A stretch of 64,000 nt of DNA from Verrucomicrobiota bacterium (GCA_027623315.1 JAQBYD010000011.1:4108-68107), one strand, 5' to 3'; shown: positions 6,815-23,744, numbered from the stretch's first letter. Numbers and translations: made by a program. Notes: a model not told the origin generated them from the sequence alone.

Positions 6815-6831
6815 TTGCTCCGCAGAGGATT

Positions 6832-6887
6832 TTGACAGGACGATTACTCGACAGGACGATTATCTGAGTACCCCTTACCCCCTTACC
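6832..6887 (+). promoter_or_regulatory. Direct-repeat motif pair (gacaggacgatta x2 with 16-nt period, then ccttacc x2) plus a TTGACA hexamer in the 97-bp spacer upstream of the second PQQ-propeller gene
   Basis: Read directly from the sequence at 6834-6846 and 6850-6862. TTGACA lies at 6832-6837. AGGAGA Shine-Dalgarno before ATG 6912. Confidence 0.3.
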
Positions 6888-6911
6888 ACTCGCCATAACA
6901 GGAGACCACCC

Positions 6912-8333
6912 ATGCACAAGCACCTCACCTACCTGACGTGTACCGTCCTATGCTCCACCGCGCTCAACGCCGCCGATGTTCCTCAGTGGGGCGCCGGGCC
7001 GAATCGTAACATGGTCAATACGGTCGAGAAGGGGCTGCCGACGGAATGGGATATCAAGTCTGGTAAGAATGTTAAGTGGTCGGTCAAGCTCGGATCCCAG
7101 TCGTATGGAAATCCCGTGATTGCGGATGGTAGCGTTTTTGTGGGAACGAACAACGAGGGAGGGTACGACCCGGAGGTCAAGGGGGACAAGGGCAACATCC
7201 TCTGCTTCGCCGAGAAGGACGGCGCCTTTCTCTGGCAGGCGGTGCACGACAAACTGAGCGCAGGCCGCGTGAATGATTGGCCGTACCAGGGCATCTGCTC
7301 AACGATCTGTATCGAGGGCGATCGCGGCTGGTACCTGAATAACCGCTGCGAGGTCGTCTGCATCACCACACGCGGCATGGTCGATGGAAAGAACGAGGGC
7401 GTTCAGGACGAGACGTACTCGGGGGCCAAGAAAGCCGATGTGATCTGGCGCTACGATATGATCGAAGAACTCGGCGTATTTCCGCATAACCTCGCAACCT
7501 CGTCGCCAATTGTTCACGGAGACCTGGTGTTTGTCGTCACCGGGAACGGCGTGGATGAAGGGCACCTCAATCTTCCTTCCCAGGTGTCGCCGAGCTTCGC
7601 GGCATTCAATAAGAAGACCGGTGAACTGGCCTGGGAGTACGCCGTCGAAGGCAGGATCCTGCACGGGCAATGGTCGTCGCCATCCATCGGGATTGTGAAT
7701 GGAAAGGCACAGGCTATATTTCCGGGTGGTGATGGTTGGATCTACTCCCTCGAGCCCGCGACCGGGGAACTAATCTGGAAGTTCAACTGTAACCCCGTCG
7801 ACGCCACGTGGGAACTCGGGGGCTACGGGACGAAGAACAATCTGATCGCGACGCCAGTCGTTCTCGACGACAAGGTCTACATCGGGGTCGGTCAGGATCC
7901 GGAGCACGGGACCGGTACGGGGCACCTTTACGCGATTGACGCGACCGGCAAGGGAGACGTCACGCAGTCCCACCAGGCGTGGCATCTCGGTGGCGATGAC
8001 TTTGGGCGTACGATGAGCACCGTCGCGATTCACGAGGGCCTGCTCTACGTGTCGGAATTGTCCGGCGTTCTCTTCTGCATCGAGGCCGCCACGGGAAAAG
8101 TGATATGGAAACACGATCAGCAGGCCTCGGTTTGGGGATCGAGCATGGTTGTGGATGGCCACGTTTACATCGGCGACGAAGACGGTGATGTGACGGTGCT
8201 TGAGCAGGGCCGGGAGCTTAAAGTCATAAACACGATCAATATGGGCGAGTCGGTCTATACCACGCCCACCGCAGCTAATGGCGTGCTTTACATCACCACG
8301 AAGTCGCATCTATATGCGATCGCGAGTGAGTAA
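6912..8333 (+). CDS. PQQ-like beta-propeller repeat protein (BamB/YVTN type), secreted
   Basis: 473-aa ORF. Signal peptide MHKHLTYLTCTVLCSTALNAA. Propeller blade repeats (LYAIDA.TGK..W, LYVS...G.L.C.EA.TGK..W). Confidence 0.7.
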   Translation: MHKHLTYLTCTVLCSTALNAADVPQWGAGPNRNMVNTVEKGLPTEWDIKSGKNVKWSVKLGSQSYGNPVIADGSVFVGTNNEGGYDPEVKGDKGNILCFAEKDGAFLWQAVHDKLSAGRVNDWPYQGICSTICIEGDRGWYLNNRCEVVCITTRGMVDGKNEGVQDETYSGAKKADVIWRYDMIEELGVFPHNLATSSPIVHGDLVFVVTGNGVDEGHLNLPSQVSPSFAAFNKKTGELAWEYAVEGRILHGQWSSPSIGIVNGKAQAIFPGGDGWIYSLEPATGELIWKFNCNPVDATWELGGYGTKNNLIATPVVLDDKVYIGVGQDPEHGTGTGHLYAIDATGKGDVTQSHQAWHLGGDDFGRTMSTVAIHEGLLYVSELSGVLFCIEAATGKVIWKHDQQASVWGSSMVVDGHVYIGDEDGDVTVLEQGRELKVINTINMGESVYTTPTAANGVLYITTKSHLYAIASE

Positions 8334-8409
8334 GCCGCTTTCAATGATGGTTACCGGCCCCAGCAGGCGTAGCCTAACCGCACGAGAGGAGACCCGCGTT
8401 ACCGCGTCC

Positions 8410-10455
8410 ATGAAATTCATTCCAATGCTCTGCTTCCTTGCCGTCGCCACGTCGCTCCTGGCCGAAGAGCCCGGCAATCTTCCCAGGATTATCGTCGAAG
8501 CGGAGGCCCTGCCGCCGGGGCCGGATATCTCCGCGAGTTGGAACTTCGACCTGGCCCCGCTGTCGACGCCGATCCAGGCAACCGTGCTTGGTGAAGAACT
8601 GATTAAGGCCCAGGGGGCTGAGAGCCTCGAGGATGTGCTCTGGAACTCGGCGGGGATCACAACCGCGACCGGTAACGGAATTCACGACTTCTTTGTCGTT
8701 CGAGGAGTCGACTCGCTTAACGGCGGGCTGACACTGGTCGACGGCATCCCCGAGCCCGAGTCCACGGTCTACCCCATGCAGCTCTACGAGGCGATTCACA
8801 TTCTCAAGGGGCCGATTGCGTTTGCGCACGGACCGAACGCACTGGCGGGATCGGTGAACCTTCTGCGGCGGCAGCCGGTCTCGGATCCGTTTGCCAGGCT
8901 CGATTTGACGGCGGGCAGCGAGGATAAGCTGCGTGCGGTGATCGACGCGGGACGCCCCTTAAGTGATGACGCCAACGCCCGGATCACCGCGCTTTACCAG
9001 GACGCGGAGAGTTATCGAGACGGTATCGAGAGCGAGATTCTCGCAGTGAGTCCGTCGGTACTTCTACAGCTCTCCGACGACCAGACCCTGCGTATTCACT
9101 ATGACTACCTGCGCAGTGACGTGATTCCCGATGCGGGGGTCCCGGTTTTTGGCGACCGACTCGTTGTGGACTCGCGCTCCGCGACGTTCCATCTGCCCGG
9201 CGACGATTCCGAGCAGGATGTCCATCGGATTCTCGTGGAGTATAAGGACTCACTCAACGAGCAGGTTGACCTCCGAAGTCGCACCTATTATACGCGCCTG
9301 GATTGGCAGAGCCAGGGCACCATTCTGGCCAGCTTCCCGCTCGCCTTGACGGGGCTGGAGGCGGAACCGTCCACGCTCGCGCGGCTGCGCGGCGTGCTCG
9401 ATGATGACCAGAACATCTTTGGCCAGGAGCTGGAGCTCAGCACGCAGATTGAGGCAGCGGGGCTCGAGCATGAGTTCGTGCTGGGGCTCGAGGCCATGCG
9501 CTTTACGGACGAGTTCACGATTCTGATCGAAGAGGCGCCCGCGATCGCCCTTGCGAGCGGATTCACCTTTCCGCTTCCACTACCGGGTCCGCCACCGAAC
9601 ACCGGCGATGCCAAGTCCGAGATCTATAGCGCGTACCTGCATGACCACGTGGTGATCGATGACCGCTGGTCCCTGGTCGCCGGCGGCCGAGTGGACGCCC
9701 TGGACTTCGAGGATGATGCGCGGGGCACCAGTCGCTCGGATACGGAATTCAGTCCGTTCGGCGGATTGGTGATGCGAGCATCCGATCAGCTCGCCGTTTT
9801 TGTGAACGGTGGGGTCGGGTTCGCGCCGCCATCGACGCAGGTCGTTGGGCCGCGCGGTGAGCCGGAAGAGAGCCTGCAGGTCGAGGCTGGGCTCAAGATG
9901 AGATCGGAAGACGCCGACTGGTTCTGCCAGCTATCAATCTACCACTTGGAGCGTGACCATATTTCCATCCCTGAGTCGGTCGGAATCTTTACGCGTAACG
10001 GCTCGCAGGAATCGCGCGGCGTCGAGATCGAGGTGCAGGGCGAAGTCGGTCCGGGTGTTCGAGTCCTCGCGGCCTATGCGTATCTCGATAGCGAACTCGA
10101 GACGTTCGCCGAAATGCTTGGGCCGTTCGTGAGTGACCGGAGCGGCAACACGACTCCGTTTGCGCCTGAACATACCTTGCGCCTGTGGGGCATACTGGAC
10201 GTCTCCGACAGCCTTGCCCTCGCGCTCGGGGTGCGCGCGGTGGACGACCAGTTTATCGCACCGGACAATGCGTACCAGATCGATTCGTATGCCACGTTCG
10301 ATGCGGCGATTCATTATACGACGGAACGCTGGAGTCTTTCCGTGCACGTAGAGAATCTCTTCGGCGAGGATTACGCCACGCGCGGCACCGCCAGTACCTC
10401 GGTTATTCCTGAGGATGATCTGTCCGCCTACGCCACCCTCGCGCTCACGTTGTGA
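8410..10455 (+). CDS. TonB-dependent outer-membrane receptor
   Basis: ORF 8278..10455. Start moved to MKFIPMLCFLAVATSLLA, a signal peptide. Plug-domain motifs (IIVEAEALPP..., VLGEELIKAQGAESLEDVLWNSAGI, GGLTLVDGIP) and a long C-terminal beta-barrel region. Confidence 0.8.
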   Translation: MKFIPMLCFLAVATSLLAEEPGNLPRIIVEAEALPPGPDISASWNFDLAPLSTPIQATVLGEELIKAQGAESLEDVLWNSAGITTATGNGIHDFFVVRGVDSLNGGLTLVDGIPEPESTVYPMQLYEAIHILKGPIAFAHGPNALAGSVNLLRRQPVSDPFARLDLTAGSEDKLRAVIDAGRPLSDDANARITALYQDAESYRDGIESEILAVSPSVLLQLSDDQTLRIHYDYLRSDVIPDAGVPVFGDRLVVDSRSATFHLPGDDSEQDVHRILVEYKDSLNEQVDLRSRTYYTRLDWQSQGTILASFPLALTGLEAEPSTLARLRGVLDDDQNIFGQELELSTQIEAAGLEHEFVLGLEAMRFTDEFTILIEEAPAIALASGFTFPLPLPGPPPNTGDAKSEIYSAYLHDHVVIDDRWSLVAGGRVDALDFEDDARGTSRSDTEFSPFGGLVMRASDQLAVFVNGGVGFAPPSTQVVGPRGEPEESLQVEAGLKMRSEDADWFCQLSIYHLERDHISIPESVGIFTRNGSQESRGVEIEVQGEVGPGVRVLAAYAYLDSELETFAEMLGPFVSDRSGNTTPFAPEHTLRLWGILDVSDSLALALGVRAVDDQFIAPDNAYQIDSYATFDAAIHYTTERWSLSVHVENLFGEDYATRGTASTSVIPEDDLSAYATLALTL

Positions 10456-10679
10456 GGCTCGTCGTTGTCATAGCGGGGCTCATCCTCTTCGTTCTGCACC
10501 AGGACTTCTGGAACTGGAACGAGAGCCGCCTGGTCTTGGGGTACATGCCCATCGGTTTGGCCTATCACGCGCTCTATTCGATCGCGGCCTCCCTTTTCTG
10601 GGCGTTCGCGATCCGTTTCGCGTGGCCGAAGGATCTTGAAGAGTGGGCGGAACAGGCCGACGGGACGGGCGCCGAATGA
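10452..10679 (+). CDS. DUF3311-like small membrane protein (sodium:solute symporter companion)
   Basis: 75-aa two-TM ORF with a GTG start overlapping the receptor stop (GTGA). Its stop overlaps the symporter ATG (ATGA). This position immediately upstream of an SSS transporter is characteristic of DUF3311. Confidence 0.55.
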   Translation: MRLVVVIAGLILFVLHQDFWNWNESRLVLGYMPIGLAYHALYSIAASLFWAFAIRFAWPKDLEEWAEQADGTGAE

Positions 10680-12208
10680 CGGCACTGGTGGTCATTCTGC
10701 TCTACCTGGCGCTGCTGCTGACGTTGGGATTTGCCAGCCAGCGATTCTTTCGGGGCACCAGCCAGGACTACTTTGTGGCCAGTCGTAGCATCGGTCCGTT
10801 CCTGCTGCTGATGTCCGTCTTCGGAACCACCATGACCGCCTTCGCGCTGGTGGGCTCTACCGGTGAGGCGTACCGCCACGGCATCGGAACCTACGGCATG
10901 TTGGCATCCTATTCAGGGCTGATCCACTCAGCCGTGTTCTTCGTGATCGGGATCCGCGTCTGGGCGATATCGAAGCGCAACGGCTACGTGACCCAGATCC
11001 AGTACTTCCGCGACCGCTTCGAGAGTAGTGGACTCGGCTATGTTCTGTTCCCGATCCTGGTCGGGCTGGTGATTCCCTATCTTCTGATCGGGTTGCTCGG
11101 CGCGGGGAGCGTCGTGCGCTCCATCACGATCGATCCGGGTCGTGAGTGGCTGAACGCCGGCGTCCCGCCCTGGCTCACGGGTCTGGTGATCAGCTCCATC
11201 GTGCTGACCTATATCTTTCTTGGCGGCCTGCGCTCGGCGGCCTGGGCCAATACGTTCCAGACGATTGTCTTCATGGCGACGGGACTCATCACGATCTGGG
11301 TCATCTCATCCAAGCTCGGCGGGGCATCGGCCGCTAGCGAGGCCGTGCTGGCCAACATGGCGCAGAAGGCCAAGTTGAGTCGTGAGAACATTCCGCCCAT
11401 GCAGTTCTTATCGTACGCCATCATTCCGCTTTCGGTCGGGATGTTTCCGCATATCTTCCAGCACTGGCTCACCGCACGCAGCGCCAAATCATTTCGCCTG
11501 GCACTGATTGCGCATCCGCTCTGCATTATGATCGTCTGGGTGCCCTGCATCCTGATCGGTGTCTGGGCCACGAGTGCGGTGTTCCCTGTGGGCCACGTAC
11601 GGGCCGGCGACTTGATTGTGCCGCTGAAGCATCCGCCCAACGCCGAACTCGCGATCATGGTCAAGGCGCTCACCACGCCGGCGCTGGCGGGACTCCTCGC
11701 CGCCGGCATCCTCGCGGCGATTATGTCGTCACTGGACTCCCAGTTTCTCTGTCTCGGCACCATGTTCACGAACGACGTGGTGTTCCACGCCTGCGGAGAG
11801 AGCCGCTTCTCGGAGAAGCAGAAGATCCTCATGGCGCGTGGCTTCGTGGTGGCGATCGTGATCGTGACATACCTGTTGTCCCTGCTTGAACCGCGCCAGG
11901 TATTCAAGATGGGCGTATGGTGTTTTACCGGCTTCGGGAGTCTCTTTCCGCTCGTCTTTGCCGCACTCTACTGGCGGCGCACGACCGCCGCCGCCGCGTA
12001 TGCCTGTGTGATTCTAACCGCCGCGACGTGGCTCGCGCTCTTCGCGAAATCCGGATGGGGCAAGACCTATCTCCTCCTGACCGACCTCAAGCTGATGCCG
12101 GCGACCTTGACCTTCGCGGTCGCCGTCGTGAGTATCGTGGTGGTCTCTCTCGTCACGCGGCCGCCTTCTGACGCGACCCTCGATCGATTCTTTCGGCGAA
12201 CGGGATGA
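10676..12208 (+). CDS. Sodium:solute symporter (SSS) family transporter
   Basis: ORF 10643..12208. Start MTALVVILLYLALL. Multi-TM protein with SSF-like segments (GTSQDYFVASRSIGPF..., GLRS..WANTFQ). Confidence 0.85.
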   Translation: MTALVVILLYLALLLTLGFASQRFFRGTSQDYFVASRSIGPFLLLMSVFGTTMTAFALVGSTGEAYRHGIGTYGMLASYSGLIHSAVFFVIGIRVWAISKRNGYVTQIQYFRDRFESSGLGYVLFPILVGLVIPYLLIGLLGAGSVVRSITIDPGREWLNAGVPPWLTGLVISSIVLTYIFLGGLRSAAWANTFQTIVFMATGLITIWVISSKLGGASAASEAVLANMAQKAKLSRENIPPMQFLSYAIIPLSVGMFPHIFQHWLTARSAKSFRLALIAHPLCIMIVWVPCILIGVWATSAVFPVGHVRAGDLIVPLKHPPNAELAIMVKALTTPALAGLLAAGILAAIMSSLDSQFLCLGTMFTNDVVFHACGESRFSEKQKILMARGFVVAIVIVTYLLSLLEPRQVFKMGVWCFTGFGSLFPLVFAALYWRRTTAAAAYACVILTAATWLALFAKSGWGKTYLLLTDLKLMPATLTFAVAVVSIVVVSLVTRPPSDATLDRFFRRTG

Positions 12209-12243
12209 CTTGACGTCGGTTCCTTTGCGCAAGGGCACACGCC

Positions 12244-13671
12244 ATGAGCATTCCACTGATTCCCGCATATCGGTTTGGCGAGACGTACGAGAGTCTTGAC
12301 GTCACCGAGATCACGAATTTCCGATCCGGAGATCCGCTGGCGCGCGTTGGAAGTGTGAACGCGGGAGTCATTCGGCGTGATCTGCGCCGGATCGATGCGG
12401 CGTTCACCGAATTCCAGAAATCATCTGTAGGACAGATGCTGGCGATCTGTGCCCGTGCTGCCGATCTGTTCATGCAGGGCGATGTGCCCGTGTCGGAGGG
12501 TGCCTTGCAGTCGCCGCAGGACTACGTTGAGATGCTCTCGGCAACGGGTGGCCTTCCGCATGCCCTCGTTCGCGGTAACATGGAAAAGATCGCGCATGTC
12601 CTGAGGGAAATGCCCACCGTCTTGAAAGGGCTGACGCGCGGACTCGACGTCGAGCAGTTGCAGGAGGGGGTGTGGCAGCAGGACGGTTTGACGCTCAGTT
12701 ATGCGCCGTCGACGACCCATCTCGGCGTGGTGTTGCCCAGCAATTCGCCCGGCGTGAACTCGTTGTGGCTTCCCGCGGTGGCCCTGCGCGTGCCCGTTCT
12801 GCTCAAGCCCGGGCGGGAGGACCCATGGACGCCGTGGCGAATCATCAACGCATTGCTCGCCGCCGGTTGTCCGGGCAGCGCCTTTGGGTTTTATCCAACC
12901 GATCACGAAGGTGCGGATGTGGTCAGCTCAAGCTGTAAACGGGTCATTCTTTTCGGGGATGCCAAGACCGTGGAGCGCCACACCGCGAACCCGAACGTGA
13001 GCGTTCACGGCCCGGGCTACAGCAAGGTGATTCTTGGTGCTGATGAGGCGGAGAACTGGGAGTCGCACATCGACTTGATGGCCGACTCGGTCGTGCACAA
13101 CGGCGGGCGCAGTTGCGTGAACGCGTCGACCATCGTGGTTCCGGCTCACGGCCGCGATGTGGCGCGGCGCCTCGCCGAGCGCCTCGCCGAGGTGAAGCCC
13201 ACGTCGCAGGACGACCCCGCAGCGCAACTCGCCGCGTTTCTCAACCTCCAGGTTGCCGATGCCATTGAGGCCATGCTCAACCAGGGGCTCGGGACGCCCG
13301 GAGCGGAAGATGTGTCGGAACCGCTGCGCGGTTCACGCGTCGTGGACTGCGATGGGCTGCGCTACCTGCTGCCCACCGTCGTGTACTGCGAGAAGTTGGA
13401 TCATCCCCTGGCAAAATCGGAATATCTCTTTCCGTATGTATCGGTTGTCGAGATCGCACAGGACGAGGTGCTCGACTGGATAGGTCCAACCCTCGTCGGC
13501 ACGGTGATCAGTTCCGATGAGACCTTCCGGCGCGCGTCGGCCGCGTGCGCGGACATCGACCGCTTGAACCTTGGCGCGGTTCCCACACCCACTGTACAAT
13601 GGGATCAGCCACACGAAGGCAACCTCTTCGAATGGCTGTACCATCGCCGTGCGATTCAGGTAGTTTCGTGA
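12244..13671 (+). CDS. ALDH-superfamily acyl-CoA/acyl-protein reductase, LuxC-like
   Basis: 475-aa ORF. ALDH-like core with non-canonical motifs that parallel LuxC rather than classical ALDH: NSP (PSNSPGVN), KPGREDPWTP, AGCPGSAFGFYP, VILFGDAKTV (LuxC VIVAWGGPDA), HGPGYSKVILG (LuxC KFGSKKSLCII), and catalytic Cys in NGGRSCVNAS (LuxC DQRACFSAQ). Confidence 0.55.
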   Translation: MSIPLIPAYRFGETYESLDVTEITNFRSGDPLARVGSVNAGVIRRDLRRIDAAFTEFQKSSVGQMLAICARAADLFMQGDVPVSEGALQSPQDYVEMLSATGGLPHALVRGNMEKIAHVLREMPTVLKGLTRGLDVEQLQEGVWQQDGLTLSYAPSTTHLGVVLPSNSPGVNSLWLPAVALRVPVLLKPGREDPWTPWRIINALLAAGCPGSAFGFYPTDHEGADVVSSSCKRVILFGDAKTVERHTANPNVSVHGPGYSKVILGADEAENWESHIDLMADSVVHNGGRSCVNASTIVVPAHGRDVARRLAERLAEVKPTSQDDPAAQLAAFLNLQVADAIEAMLNQGLGTPGAEDVSEPLRGSRVVDCDGLRYLLPTVVYCEKLDHPLAKSEYLFPYVSVVEIAQDEVLDWIGPTLVGTVISSDETFRRASAACADIDRLNLGAVPTPTVQWDQPHEGNLFEWLYHRRAIQVVS

Positions 13672-13711
13672 GGGCTCTAACCAAACCGTTCTTTCGAAAA
13701 GGAGATCGATT

Positions 13712-14251
13712 ATGAATTCAACGCAAGGTCCCCCCGGGATGATGTGGCTCGCCTTTGCTTTTATGACGGTCGTCATGTGGGGCCTCTACGGTATTTGCCT
13801 TCATAGCGGACAACTCGGCATGAGCGATCCGGAGAATGGCCGCTACAAAGCGTTTCTGATGGTCGGAGTTGCGTATTTCGTGACCGCGGTGCTCGCGCCC
13901 GCCTTGCTGCTGATTCTGCGCGACGCCACCTGGGCATTTCCTGCCAAGGGTCTCGTTTGGTCTTTGGTCGCGGGGCTTGTAGGCGCGGGGGGTGCGTTCT
14001 GCGTGCTTCTCGCCTTCGGCGCCAAAGGATCTCCGGCAGTCGTGATGACCATCGTCTTTGCCGGCGCTCCGATTGTGAACGCCATCGTCGCCATGTCAAT
14101 GCATCCGCCGGCGGGCGGCCTGAAGTCGGTACCCAAGCTCTTCTTCGTCGGCATCCTGATGGCCGCGCTGGGCGGCGCGCTGGTTACCCTCTTCAAGCCC
14201 AATCCGGCGCCGAAAGGATCCGCGCCGGCACCGTCGCAGGAGGTCCGATAG
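13712..14251 (+). CDS. Small polytopic membrane protein (EamA/DMT half-domain-like)
   Basis: 179-aa ORF with 4-5 predicted TM helices. Inserted between the LuxC-like and LuxE-like genes. Its stop overlaps the next start by 1 nt. Confidence 0.5.
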   Translation: MNSTQGPPGMMWLAFAFMTVVMWGLYGICLHSGQLGMSDPENGRYKAFLMVGVAYFVTAVLAPALLLILRDATWAFPAKGLVWSLVAGLVGAGGAFCVLLAFGAKGSPAVVMTIVFAGAPIVNAIVAMSMHPPAGGLKSVPKLFFVGILMAALGGALVTLFKPNPAPKGSAPAPSQEVR

Positions 14252-15297
14252 TGCCCGAAGCGCTCGACCAGCACGTGCGCGAGATGATGGCCTGGCATTT
14301 CGGGCCGGATACCGGGTGCCCTTTCTGGTTGGCCTGGGCCGGCAAGCAGGGCTGGGATCCCCGCGAGGAGGTGCAGGGGTTCGACGATCTCGCCAGGTTT
14401 CCGAACTTCGATGGTGAATGGTTGCGTTTCGAGCAGCCCGAACAGTGGGTGCCACAAGCGTTCGTGGGCCGGCCCTACAACATCTTTGAGACCGGTGGCA
14501 CGACAGGCATGCCGAAACAGCGTATCGGTTGGGACGACTACAAAGTCGACTACGAGTCGTTTGGCGACACGCTCAGCGATGACGAGTTTCCACGCGGTCG
14601 CAACTGGCTGATGATGGGGCCCACCGGGCCGCGCCGTCTGCGCCTGTCCATCGAGCATCTCGCGAACTACCGCGGCGGCAGTTGCTACTTCGTTGACCTT
14701 GATCCGCGCTGGGTCAAGCGCCTCATCGTCAACGGCGACCTCGATCAAGCCAAGGCCTACATGGAGCATGTGATAGATCAGGCCGTCATGATTCTTGAAC
14801 ATCGCGACGTTGCCGCGGTATTCACCACGCCGCGACTGCTGGAGTCGCTTGGCGAGAAGGTTTCGATTCCCGATGCGGGCATCAAGGGGGTGTTTTGCGG
14901 CGGCACCGAGATGAGCCCGCAGAATGTGCGCTTCCTCGTCGAAGAGGTGCTGGAGGGGCGGGTCGCCTTCAAGCCCGTGTATGGCAATACACTCATGGGG
15001 CTTGCACATAGTAAGCCTCTCGTTGCACAGGACAACTTCTCCGTAACCTACTATGCGCCGCAACCCCGCGCCGTGACTCGAGTGGTCGATCCGAATCGTA
15101 CGGACCAAGTCGTCGATTACGACACGTGGGGACGCGTGGAGTTGACCACGATGACGAAGGAGTTCTTCATGCCTTGCTTCCTTGAGCGTGATGAAGCGAT
15201 CCGCCGCGGCCCTGCCGATGGCTATGCCTGGGACGGAGTGGGGGAGGTGCGCCCCTTCGGCGCCTCAGAGACCAAGATTGTGGAAGGGGTGTATTGA
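14251..15297 (+). CDS. Adenylate-forming acyl-protein synthetase/ligase, LuxE/PaaK-like
   Basis: Within ORF 13957..15297. Start chosen at GTG 14251, 7 nt after a perfect AGGAGG. P-loop-like FETGGTTGMPKQ (compare PaaK SSGTTGKP and LuxE SSGTRG). About 348 aa, similar to LuxE size. Confidence 0.5.
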   Translation: MPEALDQHVREMMAWHFGPDTGCPFWLAWAGKQGWDPREEVQGFDDLARFPNFDGEWLRFEQPEQWVPQAFVGRPYNIFETGGTTGMPKQRIGWDDYKVDYESFGDTLSDDEFPRGRNWLMMGPTGPRRLRLSIEHLANYRGGSCYFVDLDPRWVKRLIVNGDLDQAKAYMEHVIDQAVMILEHRDVAAVFTTPRLLESLGEKVSIPDAGIKGVFCGGTEMSPQNVRFLVEEVLEGRVAFKPVYGNTLMGLAHSKPLVAQDNFSVTYYAPQPRAVTRVVDPNRTDQVVDYDTWGRVELTTMTKEFFMPCFLERDEAIRRGPADGYAWDGVGEVRPFGASETKIVEGVY

Positions 15298-15360
15298 GTC
15301 CGCGCCGCCGCCCACCACTCACTACTCACTACCCACTTCCTGACTCGTAACTGCTGAACC

Positions 15361-16518
15361 ATGAATCTCGACGCCTCCAACCTCCCCGTCCCCCTCGTCC
15401 AGGGCGAGGGCACGCTGTCCCAACTCGGTTCCCGGGTTGCAGGGCTGGGCGTATCGCGTGTCCTGCTGGTGACGGACAAGGGTGTCAGCGCCGCGGGTCA
15501 TCTGGAACCGGCACTGGACTCTCTCAAGGCATGCGGGTGTGACGTATCCGTTTTCGACAACGTGCATGCAAACCCCACGGAACTGGATGTTCTCGCCTGC
15601 GTGGCCGCGGCGAAGAATCACGGTGCGGAGGCATTGATCGGATTCGGCGGCGGGAGCAGCATGGATGCTGCCAAGGGATGTAATTTCATCCTTACGAATG
15701 GTGGCGCGATGAGTGACTACTGGGGCGTCGATAAGGCGACGCAGCCGATGTTGCCGTTCGTTGCCGTTCCGACCACGGCCGGAACCGGCAGTGAGTGCCA
15801 GCGATTCGCATTGATCTCCGATTCCACGACCCATCGCAAGATGGCGTGCGGAGATATCAAGGCGCGCGCACGCTTTGCGATTCTCGATCCACGCACGACG
15901 TTGACCCAGCCGCCGTTTGTCGCCGCTTGCACGGGCGTGGATGCGGTGGCGCATGCCGTTGAAACCGCTGTCACCGTGAAGCGCAACTCGCAATCACTTG
16001 AGTTCTCATATGATGCGTTCCGGCGATTGTCCGCCAATATCCACGCCATTATGCGTGACCCGGGCAACGTGATCGCGCGAGCGGAGATTCAACTCGGCGC
16101 TTCGCTGGCGGGTGCGGCGATCGAGTGTAGCATGCTCGGCGCGGCACATGCCGCAGCCAATCCCCTGACGGCGATGTGCGGCACGATTCACGGCCAGGCC
16201 GTTGGGATCATGTTGCCCGGAGTGGTGCGTCTTAATGGGGAAGACGGCGACGCGGCGGCGGCCTACCGTGATCTGACGGCGGCGGCAGGACTTCCGTTCG
16301 ACGGAACGGACAGGGGAGCTGTGACCGCCCTGGCCGATTGGCTCAGCGCCTTGCTCCATGATCTCGATCTGCATCGCCCGCTCCGCACCTTGGGCGTGAC
16401 CCGCGAGATGATTCCCCGGCTCAGCGCGGGTGCCGCCGAAGAGTGGACCGGAACCTTCAATCCGAGACGGTTGACGTCCGACGACTTTGCGCGCCTCTAC
16501 AGTCAAGTGCTCGATTAG
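15361..16518 (+). CDS. Iron-containing (group III) alcohol dehydrogenase
   Basis: 385-aa ORF. GFGGGSSMDAAK motif, GTGSE, and the His-rich metal-site region of Fe-ADH. Confidence 0.85.
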   Translation: MNLDASNLPVPLVQGEGTLSQLGSRVAGLGVSRVLLVTDKGVSAAGHLEPALDSLKACGCDVSVFDNVHANPTELDVLACVAAAKNHGAEALIGFGGGSSMDAAKGCNFILTNGGAMSDYWGVDKATQPMLPFVAVPTTAGTGSECQRFALISDSTTHRKMACGDIKARARFAILDPRTTLTQPPFVAACTGVDAVAHAVETAVTVKRNSQSLEFSYDAFRRLSANIHAIMRDPGNVIARAEIQLGASLAGAAIECSMLGAAHAAANPLTAMCGTIHGQAVGIMLPGVVRLNGEDGDAAAAYRDLTAAAGLPFDGTDRGAVTALADWLSALLHDLDLHRPLRTLGVTREMIPRLSAGAAEEWTGTFNPRRLTSDDFARLYSQVLD

Positions 16519-17197
16519 CTCCACTCGCGGGAGTCGGGGACGTTCATCCACGCCCCTTCCACGACGCCGGATACCGCGGCACCATCGTCCCGGTTCATGT
16601 TCCGCAGATGGACTACAACGTTCACGAAGACGATATTGTCGCCACCGCGCATGCGATCGGGTATATGCAGGCGCTGCTGGAGCAGGCCCAGACGCAATAG
16701 TCGCACCCCTGTGCCGAAAGCCGCACCGATAATCTCCGAGACCCGTAGACGACGGTAAGGATTGGGGTAAAGACGAAGAACGGAATCAGCACACAGCGAG
16801 CTAGCAATTCTCCTTGCGCGCCTCCCGTATCCCTATATGATCGCCACCGTTCGGGCGCATGCGCGCTATCCGTGAATAAGCAGCGTTGTCGGCAATGGCG
16901 AACATTGAAATAGAATGCCCCCACTGCGGAGTCCTCGCGAAGGCCCCTGATGAATTTGCGGGTCATTGCCGTCGGTGCTCATCCCTCCACGACCAACACT
17001 GAGCAACCGCTGGGCGAGAAGCGAATGGGGCTCTAGACCAATAGAGCAATTCCCGCCGATAGAGACGCGCCAGCATGGGTCTAAGGTCGTCGTAATCAGA
17101 TTTCCGGCCGGACTTCCAAAGTTTGCTTCGATTTGTCATAGTCAGTCGTCCCGTAGATGGCGTAAGAATACGGAAGAATTTCCAGAGAGAGATCGAA

Positions 17198-17356
17198 ATG
17201 CAATCGTTTAGCGAAAATCTGAATCTAGTCGTGCTCTTCGCGTTCGTTGTGTTGATCGTCATGGTGGTCATCTCGGAAGTCGTTGAGAAGATCAAGGATC
17301 GGCGAAAGGACCGGCCTGCCCCCCGCGAGACTGAGGAGGGTGACCCGCCCGACTGA
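17198..17356 (+). CDS. Small single-TM hypothetical protein (52 aa)
   Basis: Internal ATG of ORF 17123..17356, preceded by GAGAGAGA. Hydrophobic stretch LVVLFAFVVLIVMVVI. Lies in a lower-GC region. Confidence 0.3.
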   Translation: MQSFSENLNLVVLFAFVVLIVMVVISEVVEKIKDRRKDRPAPRETEEGDPPD

Positions 17357-17358
17357 TC

Positions 17359-17916
17359 GTGTCATCGCCCATCAAAAAATGCGTCAAGAGAATCGTGCCG
17401 CGGCGGTTCTGGCATTGGTTTATGGCGAATAATGACCGCCGCTTCTGGCCGTTCATGGGCGTGCCCGAAACGATGAAAGGCCTGCTGGATCCCGTCGGCT
17501 ACGACCTCGCGGACGGGTGCTTGCTGGAGGCGTTTTGGGTCGACCGGACGGACTCGATTGGCAACCGGGATCTCGGCCCCTCGGCGGTCGTCGTGGTGCA
17601 TGGCTCCGAGATCCTCAAATTCGACTGCTATGGCGAGTTGGGCGGCCACTACCACGTCTCGACGCCGTACCCCAGGTTGAGCCGCAACGGGCTTCACGGT
17701 CGAATCCAGATGCCGGAGAAGACGGTTGGAGATCAGATCGACCGGGCGATCTTTGAGTTGGAGAACAACCTGACCTACTACTTGCAGACCCATCCCCGGG
17801 CGAAGGTTTGTAACGCCCGCATCGACCCGGCGAGACTCGCCACGGTCTGCGGCCAGATGAAAGCGAAGATGCTGGCCGATGAAAAGACGTACAGGAAAAG
17901 GGGGCGGCGCCATTAG
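17359..17916 (+). CDS. Hypothetical protein
   Basis: 185-aa ORF with no recognised family. The opposite-strand ORF 17362..17913 is its shadow. Confidence 0.45.
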   Translation: MSSPIKKCVKRIVPRRFWHWFMANNDRRFWPFMGVPETMKGLLDPVGYDLADGCLLEAFWVDRTDSIGNRDLGPSAVVVVHGSEILKFDCYGELGGHYHVSTPYPRLSRNGLHGRIQMPEKTVGDQIDRAIFELENNLTYYLQTHPRAKVCNARIDPARLATVCGQMKAKMLADEKTYRKRGRRH

Positions 17917-18166
17917 CTCTATCTGGTCCGGACTGTCTTGAGTTCGGGTTCCTTGAATGACTCCTTAATCGTCATGCGCAAAGCATAGGAAGTCCAAGGT
18001 AGGGCGTGGTCTGCTCCGCGTCACGCGATTGTAAGAATTGCCTTCGACTCGCCTATAAATGACGCACGGGATTGTAATGGTCACCTCGAGAAGTGGGCCG
18101 GGGCGGTGGGTGGAGAGAATCTAGCCCGGACATCTCACACTTTTTCGTAGCGAGAGCGCGAAGAGC

Positions 18167-18257
18167 CCGTCAGGCTTGATCGAAACAGGGCTTTGCCGAT
18201 GAAACGGTATGGACATACTGTGAATTGGCGAAGCCCTGTTTCGATCAAGCCTGACGG
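18167..18257. repeat. 31-bp near-perfect inverted repeat (one G-U compatible mismatch) with a 29-nt loop. Nested inside a longer imperfect inverted repeat 18132..18293 (atctcacacttttt ... aaaagtgtgagat).
   Basis: Arm 1 is ccgtcaggcttgatcgaaacagggctttgcc and arm 2 is ggcgaagccctgtttcgatcaagcctgacgg, read directly from the sequence. Sits immediately upstream of ORF 18308. Confidence 0.8.
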
Positions 18258-18307
18258 AGCTATCCGTGTTCGTAGTAGGAAAAGTGTGAGATATCCTGGC
18301 ACAGGGA

Positions 18308-18748
18308 ATGATGACGTATACCCCGGTTGGTAGCGACGCCGACATTGAGCTGACCACCGCGGTGGATATCACCGTCAAGAAGGTCGACAACGAAGTCAAG
18401 CGGACGCCAAACGCGGTTACCTGGAATAGTGACAGGTACACGCGCATCGACCTCGAGGGAAAAATCACCCTGACGAACTACAAGGACAAGCCCGTTGTCG
18501 TCGAAATCGTGCGTCATGTGCTTGGCAATATTGATGACACGGGGCAGGGCGGTAAAAGGGAGATGGTGAACCCGTTTGAGGACACGAGCTTCCTTCCGGA
18601 TGAGCATACCTCCACATGGTGGTACGGCCATTCCTGGCCGTGGTGGTGGTATCATTTCAACGGTGTCGGCAGGATCACGTGGACCACGACCCTCGACCCC
18701 GCCACATCGGCTGACCACGAGTATCGCTGGCACTACTTCTGGAGATAG
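18308..18748 (+). CDS. Hypothetical protein with Trp-rich C-terminus
   Basis: 146-aa ORF ending ...WWYGHSWPWWWYHFNGVGRITW... No recognised family. Confidence 0.45.
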   Translation: MMTYTPVGSDADIELTTAVDITVKKVDNEVKRTPNAVTWNSDRYTRIDLEGKITLTNYKDKPVVVEIVRHVLGNIDDTGQGGKREMVNPFEDTSFLPDEHTSTWWYGHSWPWWWYHFNGVGRITWTTTLDPATSADHEYRWHYFWR

Positions 18749-18993
18749 CCTCTGAATTCAGATTGTCCGTAAAACCGGCGTTTCCGGTGGTCAAATGGCC
18801 GTTATTCCTTTGCTTGATTCCGATTCGAGAACCCTATAAATCTCACCAGCAACAGTATCGACGCAGGCGCCGCTACGAGACGGCAAGGAGGTCCCATCGG
18901 CTAGAAAGGATCACTTAAGGGGTCTACCGTATCCCCTTGTGCAAGTTGCGGCGCCCCATGGCGCATCGGATAAATCGAAAAGGAGGAACCTAC

Positions 18994-19395
18994 ATGAGTA
19001 TGATGAAGGAGTTCAAAGAGTTCGCCATTAAGGGGAACATGGTGGACATGGCAGTCGGCATCATCATTGGCGGCGCGTTTGGCAAGATCATCAGTTCGCT
19101 GGTGAGCGATGTCATCATGCCGCCCATAGGCATGCTGATGGGTGGAGTGGATTTCGCGGATAAGGCCGTGATACTCAAAGAGGCTGCGGGAGAGGTCGAG
19201 GCGGTTGCGCTGAGTTACGGCGTATTCACAAACCACGTCCTCGACTTCCTGATTGTAGCCTTCGCGATCTTCATGGTGGTCAAGGGAATCAACTCCATGA
19301 AACGCAAGGAAGCCGCAGCCCCGGCCGCGCCGCCGGAGCCGTCCAAAGAAGAAGTACTGCTTACAGAGATTCGGGATCTACTCAAAAAATCCTGA
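18994..19395 (+). CDS. mscL: Large-conductance mechanosensitive channel MscL
   Basis: Start [33 protein letters not shown]... is a canonical MscL N-terminus. AAGGAGG Shine-Dalgarno 7 nt upstream. Confidence 0.9.
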
Positions 19396-19438
19396 AGCCA
19401 GACCGAGAGTTAAATCCAAACCAACAAAAGGAATACAT

Positions 19439-20173
19439 ATGTACCGAACAAACACAGTAACATTCGCCGCCGTGGCGGCGCTCGCCGTATCGACCGTAGC
19501 GTTTGCACAGGACACCGATGGTTGGACGTCCGGCCTGAATGCCGGGCTGTCGCTGACTGAAGGAAACAGCGAGACGCTGCAGGCCAACCTGGGCGTCGCG
19601 ACCAAGAGGGTCGAGGGTGACAAAGAGTGCACCGCCGGCCTGAACGTCAACTACGGCGAGAATGGCCCCGTGACGACGACCGAATCGGCGGACGCCAATG
19701 CGAAGCACAGGCAGGCCATTAACGATCGCACGTTTGGCTACGTGGGCGTGGATGCGCTCTACGACGATATCGCACAGGTGGATCACCGCGTCGCGATCGG
19801 ACCCGGTGTCGGCATGAACCTGATGAAAGACGGTGCCGCCACGCTGGACGTAGAGGCGGGCGTCGTGTGGGTCGATGAAGACGTGGCCAACGTTTCGGAC
19901 GACTACGCCGGCTTCCGCGCAGCCGAGTACTACACGCGTCAGCTCAGTGAGACCGCGCGCGTCTGGCAGTCGCTGGAGTTCGTGCCGGAGTTTGACGACT
20001 TCGACAACTTCAACCTGGTTGTGGAGATCGGGGTTGAGGCGACCATGACCGACAGCGTGAACCTGCGCGTCGTGCTCAAGGACCGCTACGACAACACCCC
20101 CGGAATCGTGGCGGGCAAGGAGCTTGATGAGAACGACCTCACGCTCATCGCGGGCGTCGGCATAAAGCTCTAA
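19439..20173 (+). CDS. DUF481-type outer-membrane beta-barrel protein
   Basis: 244-aa ORF with signal peptide and alternating amphipathic beta-strands. Resembles the DUF481/YdiY-like family. Confidence 0.65.
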   Translation: MYRTNTVTFAAVAALAVSTVAFAQDTDGWTSGLNAGLSLTEGNSETLQANLGVATKRVEGDKECTAGLNVNYGENGPVTTTESADANAKHRQAINDRTFGYVGVDALYDDIAQVDHRVAIGPGVGMNLMKDGAATLDVEAGVVWVDEDVANVSDDYAGFRAAEYYTRQLSETARVWQSLEFVPEFDDFDNFNLVVEIGVEATMTDSVNLRVVLKDRYDNTPGIVAGKELDENDLTLIAGVGIKL

Positions 20174-20201
20174 ACGTCAAGTTAGTCTGTTTGATTCTGA
20201 G

Positions 20202-20237
20202 AAGCCCCCGGGATTCCCCCGGGGGCTTTTCTTTTTC
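20202..20237 (+). terminator. Rho-independent terminator
   Basis: agcccccgg-gattc-ccgggggct hairpin followed by ttttcttttt, directly after the DUF481 gene. Confidence 0.8.
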
Positions 20238-20375
20238 GGCGCAAAGCGCTCTTTGCGTTGCTTGTGCTCTTTGTGCTTTAATCGCCTTCGCTGGCAGCAG
20301 GTACTTCAGAACAGGCGGCAGCCAAAGGACGTAGCATTGGTGAAAGATTAGGCGGTTGAAACGGAGGATAGCGCG

Positions 20376-20618
20376 ATGACGATAGAAGTGCTTACGTCGT
20401 TCTTCATGTGGTGCACCATAATGAACGGTGCACTGTTGACACTTTGGGTCGGGTTCTTCATGGCGGCACCGGATTTGGTGTACCGCACGCAGAGCCGGTT
20501 CTTTTCGATTCCACGGGACGCGTTCGATGTGGTGATGTACTGCTTTCTCGGGATGTTTAAGATATTCTTCCTGGTCTTTAACCTCATTCCTTACCTGGCT
20601 TTGCTGATTATCGGATAA
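20376..20618 (+). CDS. Small two-TM hypothetical membrane protein
   Basis: 80-aa hydrophobic ORF in lower-GC DNA. Confidence 0.4.
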   Translation: MTIEVLTSFFMWCTIMNGALLTLWVGFFMAAPDLVYRTQSRFFSIPRDAFDVVMYCFLGMFKIFFLVFNLIPYLALLIIG

Positions 20619-20653
20619 CGAAGCGGGGCTTGAAGAATTCCCGGCGCCCGCGC

Positions 20654-20695
20654 GTGCCCTGAAAGTAGAAGCGGCGTCCCGCCGCTTTCGGGCAC
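20654..20695. repeat. Palindromic element copy 1 (gtgccctgaaAGTAGAAGCGGCGTCCCGCCGCTTTCgggcac). The 26-nt core is repeated exactly at 53662..53687.
   Basis: The exact 26-mer agtagaagcggcgtcccgccgctttc occurs twice in the window. It forms the hairpin aagcggc-gtccc-gccgctt. Confidence 0.6.
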
Positions 20696-20865
20696 TGGTC
20701 GGGAGTTTGGGTGGAGTAAGCGGCGAGACGCCACGTCTGCAGTATGAATCATCCAAATCCAGTCGTGTTTGAGAGCAACGCGACGGGCCAGTCTACAAGA
20801 TCATCGGGGATCTCAGCCTGGGGCCTCTCTGAGGAGTCTGGAAGGAACCCGTAGCAGCCGGAGGG

Positions 20866-21336
20866 TTGGACCGAATGATCAAGATTGAGAGAATGAAACC
20901 GGCTTCGAAGAAGCTGATCCCGACCCTTGTATTTCTCGCGCTCGCCTGCCTGCTGTGGGTCGAACGGGAACGTTCAGACGATCCCGGGGGCTCCTCCGGT
21001 CATAGTGATGACGCGCTGGCAACGGCTTTCGAGCATCGCCGCAGCAATCTTGACGTAGAAGCCGAGGGGGTCGTGATCAAGGTTCTGCCGGATGACAACG
21101 AGGGAAGTCGGCATCAGCGCTTCATCGTGAAGTTGCGCTCCGGTCAAACCCTCATCATCGCGCACAATATAGACTTAGCGCGTCGGATTTTGTCACTCGC
21201 GGAAGGGGATAGCGTTGCCTTCCGTGGTGAATACGAGTGGAACCCACAGGGGGGTGTCATTCATTGGACGCATCATGACCCGGGTGGTCGTCACGTGGCA
21301 GGTTGGCTGATGCACGATGGAAAGAAGTACCAATAG
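20866..21336 (+). CDS. DUF3465-like protein
   Basis: C-terminal segment VLPDDNEGSRHQRFIVKLRSGQTLIIAHNIDLA...GEYEWNPQGGVIHWTHHDPGGRHVAGWL matches my recollection of DUF3465. N-terminal signal anchor. Confidence 0.55.
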   Translation: MDRMIKIERMKPASKKLIPTLVFLALACLLWVERERSDDPGGSSGHSDDALATAFEHRRSNLDVEAEGVVIKVLPDDNEGSRHQRFIVKLRSGQTLIIAHNIDLARRILSLAEGDSVAFRGEYEWNPQGGVIHWTHHDPGGRHVAGWLMHDGKKYQ

Positions 21337-21419
21337 CTTCCACTTCGCCGAGTCTGGTGGTAGAGAGTTGGACGCGAATGCCTGATTGCGATAGGGGCTA
21401 ACACAGAAAGGAAATCACG

Positions 21420-22007
21420 ATGCATGACGTGCTGAGTAAGAATCTCTACCTCGTTAAGGAACATGTTGGGATGTTCAAGGCGGCGAATAATTACGATATC
21501 CATGATCCGGAGACCGGGGAGATCATGATGGAGTGTCGGGAGGATAATCTGGGCGTCATGACCAAGCTGTTCAGGTTCACGGACTACAGGCGGATGACGC
21601 CCTTCGACGTCCAGGTCAGGACGCCCGCCGGAGAGCAAGTCGTTCGCGTGAAGCGCGGCATTTCCGTATTCCTGTCAAAGGTGGAGGTTTTCGATGAAGC
21701 GGACCGTGCCATCGGCAGTTTCTCCCAGAAGCTATTCTCGATCGGTGGAGCCTTTACGGTGCTCGATGCCGGCGCGAACGCGGTGTGTCAGCTCAAGGGG
21801 AAGTGGACCGGCTGGGACTTCCGGTTCCTCGCGGGCGAAGCCGAGCTCGCGCATGTTACGAAGAAATGGGCCGGCCTCGGAAAAGAGATGTTCACCAGCG
21901 CGGACAACTACGTGTTGCAGATATCCGACAGTGTGCCTGCCGACAACGTGGCGCGCCAACTGATCCTCGCCGCCGTGATGTGCATCGACATGGTGCTTAA
22001 GGAGTAG
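21420..22007 (+). CDS. LOR/YxjI-like (Tubby C-terminal-like, DUF567) family protein
   Basis: 195-aa ORF whose segment order parallels Bacillus YxjI/LURP-one-related proteins (YDIHDPETGE..., ...QLILAAVMCIDMV). Confidence 0.5.
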   Translation: MHDVLSKNLYLVKEHVGMFKAANNYDIHDPETGEIMMECREDNLGVMTKLFRFTDYRRMTPFDVQVRTPAGEQVVRVKRGISVFLSKVEVFDEADRAIGSFSQKLFSIGGAFTVLDAGANAVCQLKGKWTGWDFRFLAGEAELAHVTKKWAGLGKEMFTSADNYVLQISDSVPADNVARQLILAAVMCIDMVLKE

Positions 22008-22237
22008 TCGACGGGAATTCATCGTCAAGCGTGACCGTCGTATTCATCGGAGAAGACAGTACTGCAGAGGCCAAGAACGTGCAATTCCAGGGCAAATTAG
22101 CGGTTGCATTCGCGGCATGCCCCGATCATAGTTCGGCGTCGGTCAGTTAGGACCGGCCCCGATCCTCACTTGGTGTCGTCGTGGCGTAGTCGGGATGCGA
22201 GAGACGTGACACAAATACATAAGCAAGGAGATATCGA

Positions 22238-22606
22238 ATGGATATCTATGTCGGCAATCTGCCCTACCAGGTGGACGATCAAGCGCTGCAGGATCTGTTT
22301 GCGCAACACGGTACGGTTAGTTCAGCGCGAGTGATCACGGACAAGTTTTCGGGTGACTCCAAGGGGTTCGGCTTCGTTGAGATGCCGGACAAGACCGAAG
22401 CACTCGCGGCGATCAAGGCCACGAGCGAGCAGGACTTCATGGGGCGCAACTTGCGCGTCAACGAATCGCAGCCCAAACCTCGAGACGGCGGCGGCGGCGG
22501 TGGTCGTGGTGGCGGCGGCGGCGGCGCCGGTGGTGGCCGCGGTGGCCGCGGTGGTCGTGGCGGCGGCGGTGGCGGCGGTGGTGGAGGACGTGACCGTCGT
22601 TGGTAG
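22238..22606 (+). CDS. RRM-type RNA-binding protein with Gly/Arg-rich (RGG) tail
   Basis: MDIYVGNLPYQVDDQALQDLF...KGFGFVEM (RNP2/RNP1 motifs) followed by GGGGRGG repeats. Long 230-nt 5' leader. AAGGAG Shine-Dalgarno. Confidence 0.85.
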   Translation: MDIYVGNLPYQVDDQALQDLFAQHGTVSSARVITDKFSGDSKGFGFVEMPDKTEALAAIKATSEQDFMGRNLRVNESQPKPRDGGGGGGRGGGGGGAGGGRGGRGGRGGGGGGGGGGRDRRW

Positions 22607-22644
22607 GCGGATCAAGTTCAGACACTTGACCAGTTTGCACTAGC

Positions 22645-22677
22645 AAAAGGCGCGCTTCGGCGCGCCTTTTGTTTTTC
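22645..22677 (+). terminator. Rho-independent terminator
   Basis: aaaaggcgcgc-ttcg-gcgcgcctttt followed by gttttt, after the RRM gene. Confidence 0.8.
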
Positions 22678-22696
22678 CAGGAGAGTTCTGAGAGGT

Positions 22697-22772: not shown

Positions 22773-22818
22773 ATCGGTAAGCTGCATATTCTATGGGTTC
22801 AGCTGGTTGGAGAAAAGC

Positions 22819-23607: not shown

Positions 23608-23744
23608 GGGGCAGATTTCCTTAGGTTACCGACTCTCTTGTTTCGGTTTCAGGTAGAAAAGAGGTCGTTTTATCAGAAATCCTTTGACATGCAATCCGAT
23701 TCTGAACATAGTTAGCGGCCTTATTTTTCTACAAGGAGAAAAAG

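Follow-up and report, generated by a model that had tools for sequence, protein, structure and literature searches.

The question raised by positions 12,244 to 16,518 of a 64,000-nucleotide stretch of DNA from a Verrucomicrobiota bacterium (GCA_027623315.1, JAQBYD010000011.1:4108-68107; the whole stretch is here called the window) is what an aldehyde dehydrogenase (ALDH)-like protein, an adenylating enzyme and an iron-dependent alcohol dehydrogenase (Fe-ADH) accomplish together when encoded in a row, with a small membrane protein between the first two. An earlier note on this DNA had described the four genes as a carboxylate-to-alcohol reduction system assembled from LuxC-like and LuxE/PaaK-like enzymes. 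We propose that the pair operates as an EhpF/EhpG-type carboxylate reductase made up of two proteins, free of carrier protein and coenzyme A (CoA), with subsequent reduction to the alcohol by the Fe-ADH, a reading drawn from sequence comparison to which we assign a probability of about 0.55. The functional idea of the note is retained, because of the homology to EhpF/EhpG, the co-occurrence of the genes and the domain fusions described below, whereas its family labels are replaced.

Among PDB sequences, the adenylating enzyme matches EhpF (3HGU/3L2K; phmmer E 1.2e-46, 32% identity), with residues 7-348 aligning to EhpF 22-366, i.e. to the end of the EhpF chain, and its C-terminus is the family-wide EGVY, the same end as that of the EhpF crystal-structure sequence. 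The P-loop FETGGTTGMPK, already pointed out in the earlier note, is present at residues 79-89, along with YGNT at 244-247 and ERD at 312-314, and G82, G83, T84, G86, P88, Y244, G245, T247, E312, R313 and D314 are invariant in 16 adenylase sequences. The only Pfam family detected is AMP-binding, at 19.7 bits and under its cutoff; AMP-binding_C gives no match in the adenylase, the ANL C-terminal domain being absent. Hidden Markov model (HMM) searches with LuxC (PF05893), LuxE (PF04443) and PaaK returned no membership for the pair, and the LuxE/PaaK label for the adenylase had to be given up in favour of EhpF homology: Pfam LuxE matches neither the window protein at E<=10 nor any of the 16 family members at E<=1, while the best NCBIfam profiles are the DVU1553 family, at 15 bits, and F390_ftsA, which scores 28 bits (E 8.6e-7) where 458.7 are required. 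PaaK membership was rejected on scores far below the family cutoffs and on the missing AMP-binding_C_2 C-terminal domain. Judged by these matches, the enzyme is an EhpF-type ANL adenylase without the C-terminal domain.

The ALDH-like protein aligns to Pantoea EhpG (BLASTP E 4e-35, 27% identity over 384 residues, reaching the C-terminus), for which the ehp cluster was taken from a Pantoea agglomerans plasmid (L081) where EhpG is annotated as 'aldehyde dehydrogenase family protein'. Catalytic Cys291 and Asn167 are invariant in an 18-sequence family alignment, and the general-base Glu of the ELGG motif is absent from all 18 members, being His255 in the clade of Planctomycetota-Verrucomicrobiota-Chlamydiota (PVC) bacteria and Gln, Arg or Tyr elsewhere. 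In the window protein, VHGPG occupies the ELGG position and the Cys is kept in GGRSC, so that the motifs are indeed deviant as the note had said and no intact ELGG/GQxC site of a classical ALDH is present; the affinity to LuxC that had been read from them is not borne out, since Pfam LuxC gives no match to this protein even at E<=10. Sub-threshold LuxC matches occur in five of the 18 family members (best E 3.8e-4; gathering score 21 bits). No close EhpG-type structure was found among PDB sequences, where the family profile retrieves only ordinary ALDHs, and the NCBIfam matches of the ALDH-like protein, the neighbouring symporter and the Fe-ADH all lie far under equivalog cutoffs. By homology, the protein is of the EhpG type and not LuxC.

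The assignment of the third enzyme as an iron alcohol dehydrogenase agrees with its Pfam domains. GGGS96, D194, H198, H263 and H277 are all in place, and these intact cofactor and metal motifs count for an aldehyde-to-alcohol step. Its best PDB matches are methanol dehydrogenase, ADH2, FucO and DhaT, i.e. its nearest counterparts there act on methanol, lactaldehyde or propanediol.

The order of events would be as follows. A carboxylate would enter the cell via the sodium symporter formed by the upstream DUF3311 and sodium:solute symporter family (SSF) proteins, perhaps following uptake by a TonB-dependent route and processing in the periplasm by two beta-propeller proteins, PQQ1 and PQQ2. The EhpF-type enzyme would then convert the acid to acyl-AMP at the expense of ATP and, because the ANL C-terminal domain is absent, would be unable to perform the usual thioester-forming half-reaction. 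Instead, Cys291 of the ALDH-fold partner would attack the acyl-AMP, yielding a thioacyl-enzyme that would escape hydrolysis because the water-activating Glu is replaced by His255. Reduction of this intermediate by NAD(P)H, i.e. the ALDH reaction in reverse, would give the aldehyde, which the Fe-ADH would reduce to the alcohol. Hints to the substrate diverge, as all characterised relatives use aryl carboxylates and the symporter and Fe-ADH resemble proteins that handle small polar acids and aldehydes. A divergent MarR regulator, a type typical of phenolic-acid sensing, is found in 22 of the 80 related genome loci analysed.

These loci (L001-L080) are the best 80 of at least 575 species-level genomes in which a genome scan detected a relative of the adenylase, and their carriers belong to Verrucomicrobiota, Planctomycetota (Phycisphaerae), Kiritimatiellia and similar groups. 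The neighbourhood comparison proposed in the earlier note could be made at the 56 loci that extend 3 kb or more beyond the adenylase, where an ALDH-like gene comes next downstream of the EhpF-like gene in 30 and is then followed by an Fe-ADH in 25 of the 30; an Fe-ADH without the ALDH-like gene is seen in two. Starting from the ALDH-like protein in metagenomes, an EhpF-like gene was found in 16 of 22 loci with enough upstream sequence. On plasmids, the EhpF-type gene directly adjoins the EhpG-type gene in 16 of the 18 records with an EhpG-type match and lies 2.4 kb away in another, the partner in the 18th record not being among the matches listed; the pairs sit in phenazine clusters, or in clusters otherwise derived from chorismate, of Pantoea, E. 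coli, Burkholderia and Streptomyces. Altogether, adjacency of the two types spans Gammaproteobacteria, Betaproteobacteria, Actinomycetota, Halobacteria and PVC bacteria. Two fusions were detected among 1370 family representatives, one joining a Zn-dependent alcohol dehydrogenase (P0348, 725 amino acids) and one a class-III aminotransferase (P0298, 824 amino acids) to an EhpF-like domain that in both cases is a distant member of the family; as both partners are aldehyde-using enzymes, we count the fusions as support for aldehyde production.

Across phyla the adenylase is highly conserved, at 68-77% identity between the window protein and those of the 80 loci, as compared to about 51% for the ALDH-like protein, about 51% for the Fe-ADH, about 43% for PQQ2 and about 32% for PQQ1. 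Its relatives fill at least 8000 protein clusters at 90% identity and, at 50% clustering of the protein library, only 223 representatives with E<=1e-30, and public records mostly name this clade 'hypothetical' or 'AMP-binding'.

Several observations weigh against the proposed reductase. Neither an ALDH-like gene nor an Fe-ADH is nearby in 24 of the 56 loci (about 43%), where the downstream genes are unconserved, and 11 Streptomyces plasmids carry an EhpF-type gene without an EhpG-type match. In both of the Streptomyces plasmids that were inspected a type I polyketide synthase (PKS) is the neighbour of the EhpF-type gene; the missing EhpG-type partner and the PKS neighbours imply that the adenylase can serve other acceptors. 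Conversely, within 9 kb of two ALDH-like genes, one in Omnitrophota (L090 9001-19434) and one in Lentisphaeria (L091 9001-15966), with products sharing 56-57% identity with the window protein, no EhpF-like gene is found. A PaaK-like ligase is near instead, the ALDH-like gene lying close to a membrane-protein homologue coupled to that ligase, and in these lineages the partner of the reductase may be another adenylating enzyme. As a catabolic strategy, it would moreover be odd to take up an acid for no other end than its reduction, which consumes ATP and NAD(P)H, and the EhpF/EhpG reaction itself is said to be a proposal derived from genetics and structure. Our literature search returned nothing relevant on this cluster in PVC bacteria, on DUF3179 or on 'arylcarboxylate reductase', and no paper tying carboxylic acid reductases to these phyla.

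Of the alternatives, one keeps the chemistry and changes its purpose: the three enzymes could be the tailoring part of a conserved pathway that builds a metabolite, lipid or cofactor, with the aldehyde or alcohol as an intermediate built on by other enzymes, rather than serve the use of an imported nutrient. We hold this to be rather unlikely, although every characterised or annotated context outside the PVC bacteria is a chorismate-derived secondary-metabolite cluster (phenazine, p-aminobenzoate-like) and although many related loci continue beyond the EhpF-ALDH-FeADH genes with a longer set. This comprises a HemN-like radical SAM enzyme, a family-less protein of 187 amino acids, a flavin halogenase/QhpG/geranylgeranyl-reductase-like flavoenzyme, a glycosyltransferase (GT4), a 4HBT thioesterase, a homologue of the five-helix membrane protein, a PaaK-like ligase and DUF3179 (L001, L098, L099, L121, L138, L115, L105, L002 and L003, and also L011, L012, L036, L039, L055, L076 and L079). 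With the exception of the membrane protein, no gene of the longer set is present in the 64-kb window, the most constant neighbours are the symporter and secreted proteins, which point to uptake, and an adenylase identity of about 70% across phyla is unusual for secondary metabolism.

A broader pathway that combines both aspects is conceivable, though we put it forward as doubtful: the pair would stand at the cytoplasmic centre of a strongly conserved, as yet undescribed pathway of Verrucomicrobiota, Planctomycetota, Kiritimatiellia and relatives, and not a case of antibiotic tailoring. An extracellular compound captured by the TonB-dependent receptor and the beta-propellers would yield a carboxylate, which DUF3311/SSF would import and the enzymes reduce, independently of CoA and carrier, to the aldehyde or alcohol; in the fuller clusters, the product would feed a route via radical SAM enzyme, flavoenzyme, glycosyltransferase and PaaK-like ligase to a conserved metabolite. 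In a bolder variant, the enzymes may run backwards, conserving energy as ATP from AMP and pyrophosphate (PPi).

The oxidative direction also has to be considered in its own right. Here the Fe-ADH would oxidise an alcohol and the ALDH-fold protein would take the aldehyde to the thioacyl-enzyme, from which the acyl group would pass to AMP on the EhpF-type enzyme, giving the acid and ATP from AMP and PPi, or an acid activated for another ligation. The missing hydrolytic Glu is compatible with every kind of acyl transfer that avoids hydrolysis and not with reduction alone, the fusion partners are silent on direction, and the balance acid + ATP + NAD(P)H = aldehyde + AMP + PPi + NAD(P)+ should be near equilibrium, as estimated from textbook energies. 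Nevertheless, we judge this direction improbable, as the known relatives are described as reductive (PMC10179220), the adjacent SSF importer suits an acid substrate better than an acid product, and there is no evidence of a PPi supply.

That the genes are mere neighbours, an ordinary aldehyde-oxidising ALDH beside an unrelated ligase with no common pathway, appears very unlikely. Generic Aldedh is, admittedly, the sole above-threshold Pfam family of the ALDH-like protein, and the share of loci without an ALDH-like gene beside the adenylase has been given above. Yet the general-base Glu is missing throughout the ALDH-like family, and the strong co-occurrence of the two families, adjacent in taxa from Gammaproteobacteria to Halobacteria, is at odds with chance proximity. 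Finally, a LuxC/LuxE-type fatty-acid reductase, in which a self-acylating acyl-protein synthetase passes the fatty acyl group to the LuxC reductase, shares the logic of adenylation, Cys thioester formation on an ALDH-superfamily reductase and NADPH reduction, and finds an echo in the weak LuxC matches of the ALDH-like family, but can be practically dismissed given that the HMM scans rejected membership at permissive thresholds, that the adenylase is an EhpF homologue (E 1e-46) and that no luxA, luxB or luxD family is found among the neighbours, in line with the earlier note and with the public Pfam annotations of window positions 2243-22570.

The proposed EhpF/EhpG-type reductase is embedded in a larger array of genes (Table 1). 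As the earlier note had it, the three enzyme genes and the membrane-protein gene are colinear, and public gene calls agree with all four. The same gene set is present in independent public calls on near-identical contigs (L092, L093), one of which stems from the NCBI assembly GCA_027593205.1, and an identical ALDH-like protein at NCBI is labelled as from a 'Verrucomicrobia bacterium' metagenome-assembled genome. With thousands of homologues for each of the four proteins, they are not chance open reading frames (ORFs).

Table 1. Genes of the cluster in the window, with the four genes of the proposed reduction module first.
Feature	Position	Strand	Length and supporting evidence
EhpG-type ALDH-like protein	12244-13671	+	475 aa; Pfam Aldedh 60 bits, only above-threshold Pfam family
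Five-helix membrane protein	13712-14251	+	179 aa; five predicted helices
EhpF-type adenylating enzyme	14251-15297	+	348 aa; GTG start, PDB EhpF match
Group III iron-dependent alcohol dehydrogenase	15361-16518	+	385 aa; Pfam Fe-ADH 165 bits, ADH_Fe_C 102 bits
PQQ1, secreted beta-propeller protein	4595-6814	+	739 aa; Pfam PQQ_2 113.9 bits
PQQ2, secreted beta-propeller protein	6912-8333	+	473 aa; PQQ_2 91 bits, Beta-prop_ACSF4 77.6 bits
TonB-dependent outer-membrane receptor	8410-10455	+	681 aa; Plug 56 bits, TonB_dep_Rec_b-barrel 141 bits
DUF3311 small membrane protein	10452-10679	+	75 aa; Pfam DUF3311 40.7 bits (cutoff 30)
Sodium:solute symporter family transporter (SSF)	10676-12208	+	510 aa; Pfam SSF 129 bits

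The gene layout is consistent with a single transcription unit, as previously suggested, whose extent had been underestimated: the unit continues upstream to a conserved cluster of nine same-strand genes (4595-16518) with gaps of at most 97 nucleotides, adding the symporter, the TonB-dependent receptor and the beta-propellers that had been missed. The 1-nucleotide overlaps reported before are confined to the junction TAGTG between the membrane-protein gene and the adenylase gene, the other junctions being gaps of 35, 40 and 63 nucleotides, and the start codon of the adenylase is preceded by AGGAGG 7 nucleotides upstream. The DUF3311 gene overlaps both of its neighbours by 4 nucleotides. The mechanically called ORF of the symporter (10643-12208, with GTG at 10643) masks this gene in another frame; public gene calls place the symporter start at the ATG at 10676, in agreement with the 4-nucleotide overlap. 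A promoter and terminator scan of 3800-17500 gave counts not above those of shuffled sequence and is therefore uninformative on operon structure. Antisense ORFs at 13843-15108 (minus strand, 421 amino acids) and 15322-15993 (minus strand, 223 amino acids) overlap the adenylase and Fe-ADH genes; such 'shadow' ORFs recur across loci because the sense genes are conserved, and they are by-products of high G+C, not genes.

The five-helix membrane protein has no Pfam or NCBIfam match. Homologues in other phyla are 55-70% identical, with invariant H31, Q34, D39, R44, K46, K105 and H131, and their genes are found elsewhere directly upstream of the PaaK-like ligase within the longer conserved set. One of seven family members matches EamA (E 0.0025), and the protein is possibly DMT/EamA-like; a single-sequence AlphaFold2 model likewise has five helices, but at low confidence (pLDDT 58, pTM 0.37).

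Upstream, PQQ1 has a signal-peptide-like N-terminus and an extra C-terminal domain, its MNRTNV start agreeing with the public gene call. Most related loci have a PQQ1 orthologue ahead of the EhpF-like gene, and a PQQ2 orthologue (at least 38% identity) is present in 44 of the 55 loci having at least 5.5 kb upstream of that gene; PDB searches with both proteins returned only generic repeat matches to BamB, quinoproteins and tetrathionate hydrolase. A third PQQ-like beta-propeller gene is located about 39 kb downstream in the window (55176-57047, plus strand, 623 amino acids; 21-27% identity to PQQ1/PQQ2); related loci often have a third propeller gene directly after the Fe-ADH. The TonB-dependent receptor, whose MKFIPML start was set by the public call and the signal peptide, is also present in L101 and L051 and absent from most related loci.

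In L084 and L086, too, the SSF gene comes after that for DUF3311. In Sinorhizobium, DUF3311 and the pyruvate/monocarboxylate symporter MctP are under common regulation (PMC9100948), and the DUF3311 protein is the usual companion of MctP-type SSF symporters. Among NCBIfam models, PutP, PanF and MctP are the types closest to the window symporter, all under their cutoffs. In related loci the SSF gene is directly followed by the EhpF-like gene, and the same holds for a haloarchaeal plasmid, Halalkalicoccus jeotgali plasmid 2 (L083 4511-8569), where SSF symporter, EhpF-type and ALDH-type genes follow in a row near genes for an IclR regulator, a primary-amine oxidase and a short-chain dehydrogenase/reductase (SDR). 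The transporter-linked form therefore exists outside PVC bacteria.

In relatives, the conserved order is divergent MarR, PQQ1, PQQ2, DUF3311, SSF, EhpF, ALDH-like and Fe-ADH, and the window cluster has every member of this set except MarR and, in addition, the TonB-dependent receptor. One carrier of the cluster is the cultivable Fontisphaera persica (CP116615.1, 571758-592840). The order of ALDH-like gene, membrane-protein gene and adenylase gene is lineage-specific, the adenylase coming first everywhere else. It is kept in L097 and in L147; in the latter the Fe-ADH gene follows, the 1-nucleotide overlap is preserved and the ALDH-like protein is 85% identical. At the 24 loci with neither ALDH-like gene nor Fe-ADH (e.g. 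L007, L016, L020, L021, L027, L030, L032, L033, L037, L041, L043 and L045), PQQ1-PQQ2-DUF3311-SSF-EhpF is followed by unrelated genes and the operon appears to end at the EhpF-like gene.

Downstream of the cluster, the region 17359-31276 is apparently unrelated, encoding a DUF7700-like protein, an RNase T-like exonuclease and M48 peptidases, along with MscL (18937-19395), a DUF481 outer-membrane protein (19439-20173), a scramblase-like protein (21420-22007) and TrkA/TrkH (25559-28410).

To our knowledge, carboxylate reductases made of two proteins and independent of a carrier have been described from a few antibiotic pathways only and are poorly characterised. The nearest are EhpF and EhpG of Pantoea agglomerans (D-alanylgriseoluteic acid, a phenazine; 3HGU, 3HGV, 3L2K), to which both window proteins are homologous over their full length and with which they share the absent ANL C-terminal domain, the kept Cys and the missing general-base Glu. 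EhpF and EhpG have reportedly been proposed to turn phenazine-1,6-dicarboxylate into the 6-formyl derivative by way of an acyl-adenylate. While the ehpF and ehpG genes are directly adjacent, the window pair is separated only by the membrane-protein gene, and its ALDH-like-first order differs from the ehpF-ehpG order found elsewhere; at the general-base position, the window protein has His as compared to Gln in EhpG. The window cluster is without phenazine genes and, unlike the ehp cluster, has a symporter, a TonB-dependent receptor, beta-propellers and an Fe-ADH, and the PVC clade, at about 70% identity across phyla, is far more conserved. The title of Bera et al. 2010 (listed in PMC3175449) calls EhpF an atypical ANL adenylating enzyme.

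A further two-protein system is that of grixazone biosynthesis in Streptomyces griseus, in which, according to the description in PMC10179220 citing Suzuki et al. 2007, the AMP-binding GriC forms the acyl-AMP and GriD reduces it to the aldehyde. The likeness of GriC/GriD to the window pair is one of published description and product name: the NCBI pipeline names some Streptomyces EhpF-type proteins 'arylcarboxylate reductase', and the two such loci that were inspected adjoin a type I PKS and not grixazone-like clusters. The GriC/GriD substrate, 3-amino-4-hydroxybenzoate, is made intracellularly and that description includes no transporter or Fe-ADH, unlike the window.

LuxC/LuxE of bioluminescence follow the same reaction logic, with the window proteins falling outside both HMMs, the adenylase belonging to another family, the likeness of the ALDH-like family to LuxC being faint and sub-threshold, and the public Pfam annotations of positions 2243-22570 including no luxA, luxB, luxD or luxE family. 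Type I carboxylic acid reductases (Nocardia/Mycobacterium; fungal Lys2-like) catalyse the same net reaction, acid + ATP + NADPH to aldehyde + AMP + PPi, in a single polypeptide of adenylation, peptidyl carrier and reductase parts (A-PCP-R) with a phosphopantetheinyl carrier and an SDR-type reductase, whereas the window reductase has the ALDH fold and no cluster protein matches PP-binding or NAD_binding_4 in Pfam. The short ANL ligases PaaK and coenzyme F390 synthetase show distant N-terminal similarity and share the P-loop, the window adenylase lacking their AMP-binding_C_2 domain, and a true PaaK-like ligase is present separately in the fuller cluster versions.

In conclusion, the two-protein chemistry is known, and what is new is a distinct, highly conserved, transporter-linked clade in an operon that resembles primary metabolism. 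If its substrate is found, a function could be given to a very common gene set in PVC bacteria of soil, freshwater and marine habitats, and the enzymes are a possible source of simple acid-reducing biocatalysts that, compared to type I carboxylic acid reductases, are independent of phosphopantetheine.

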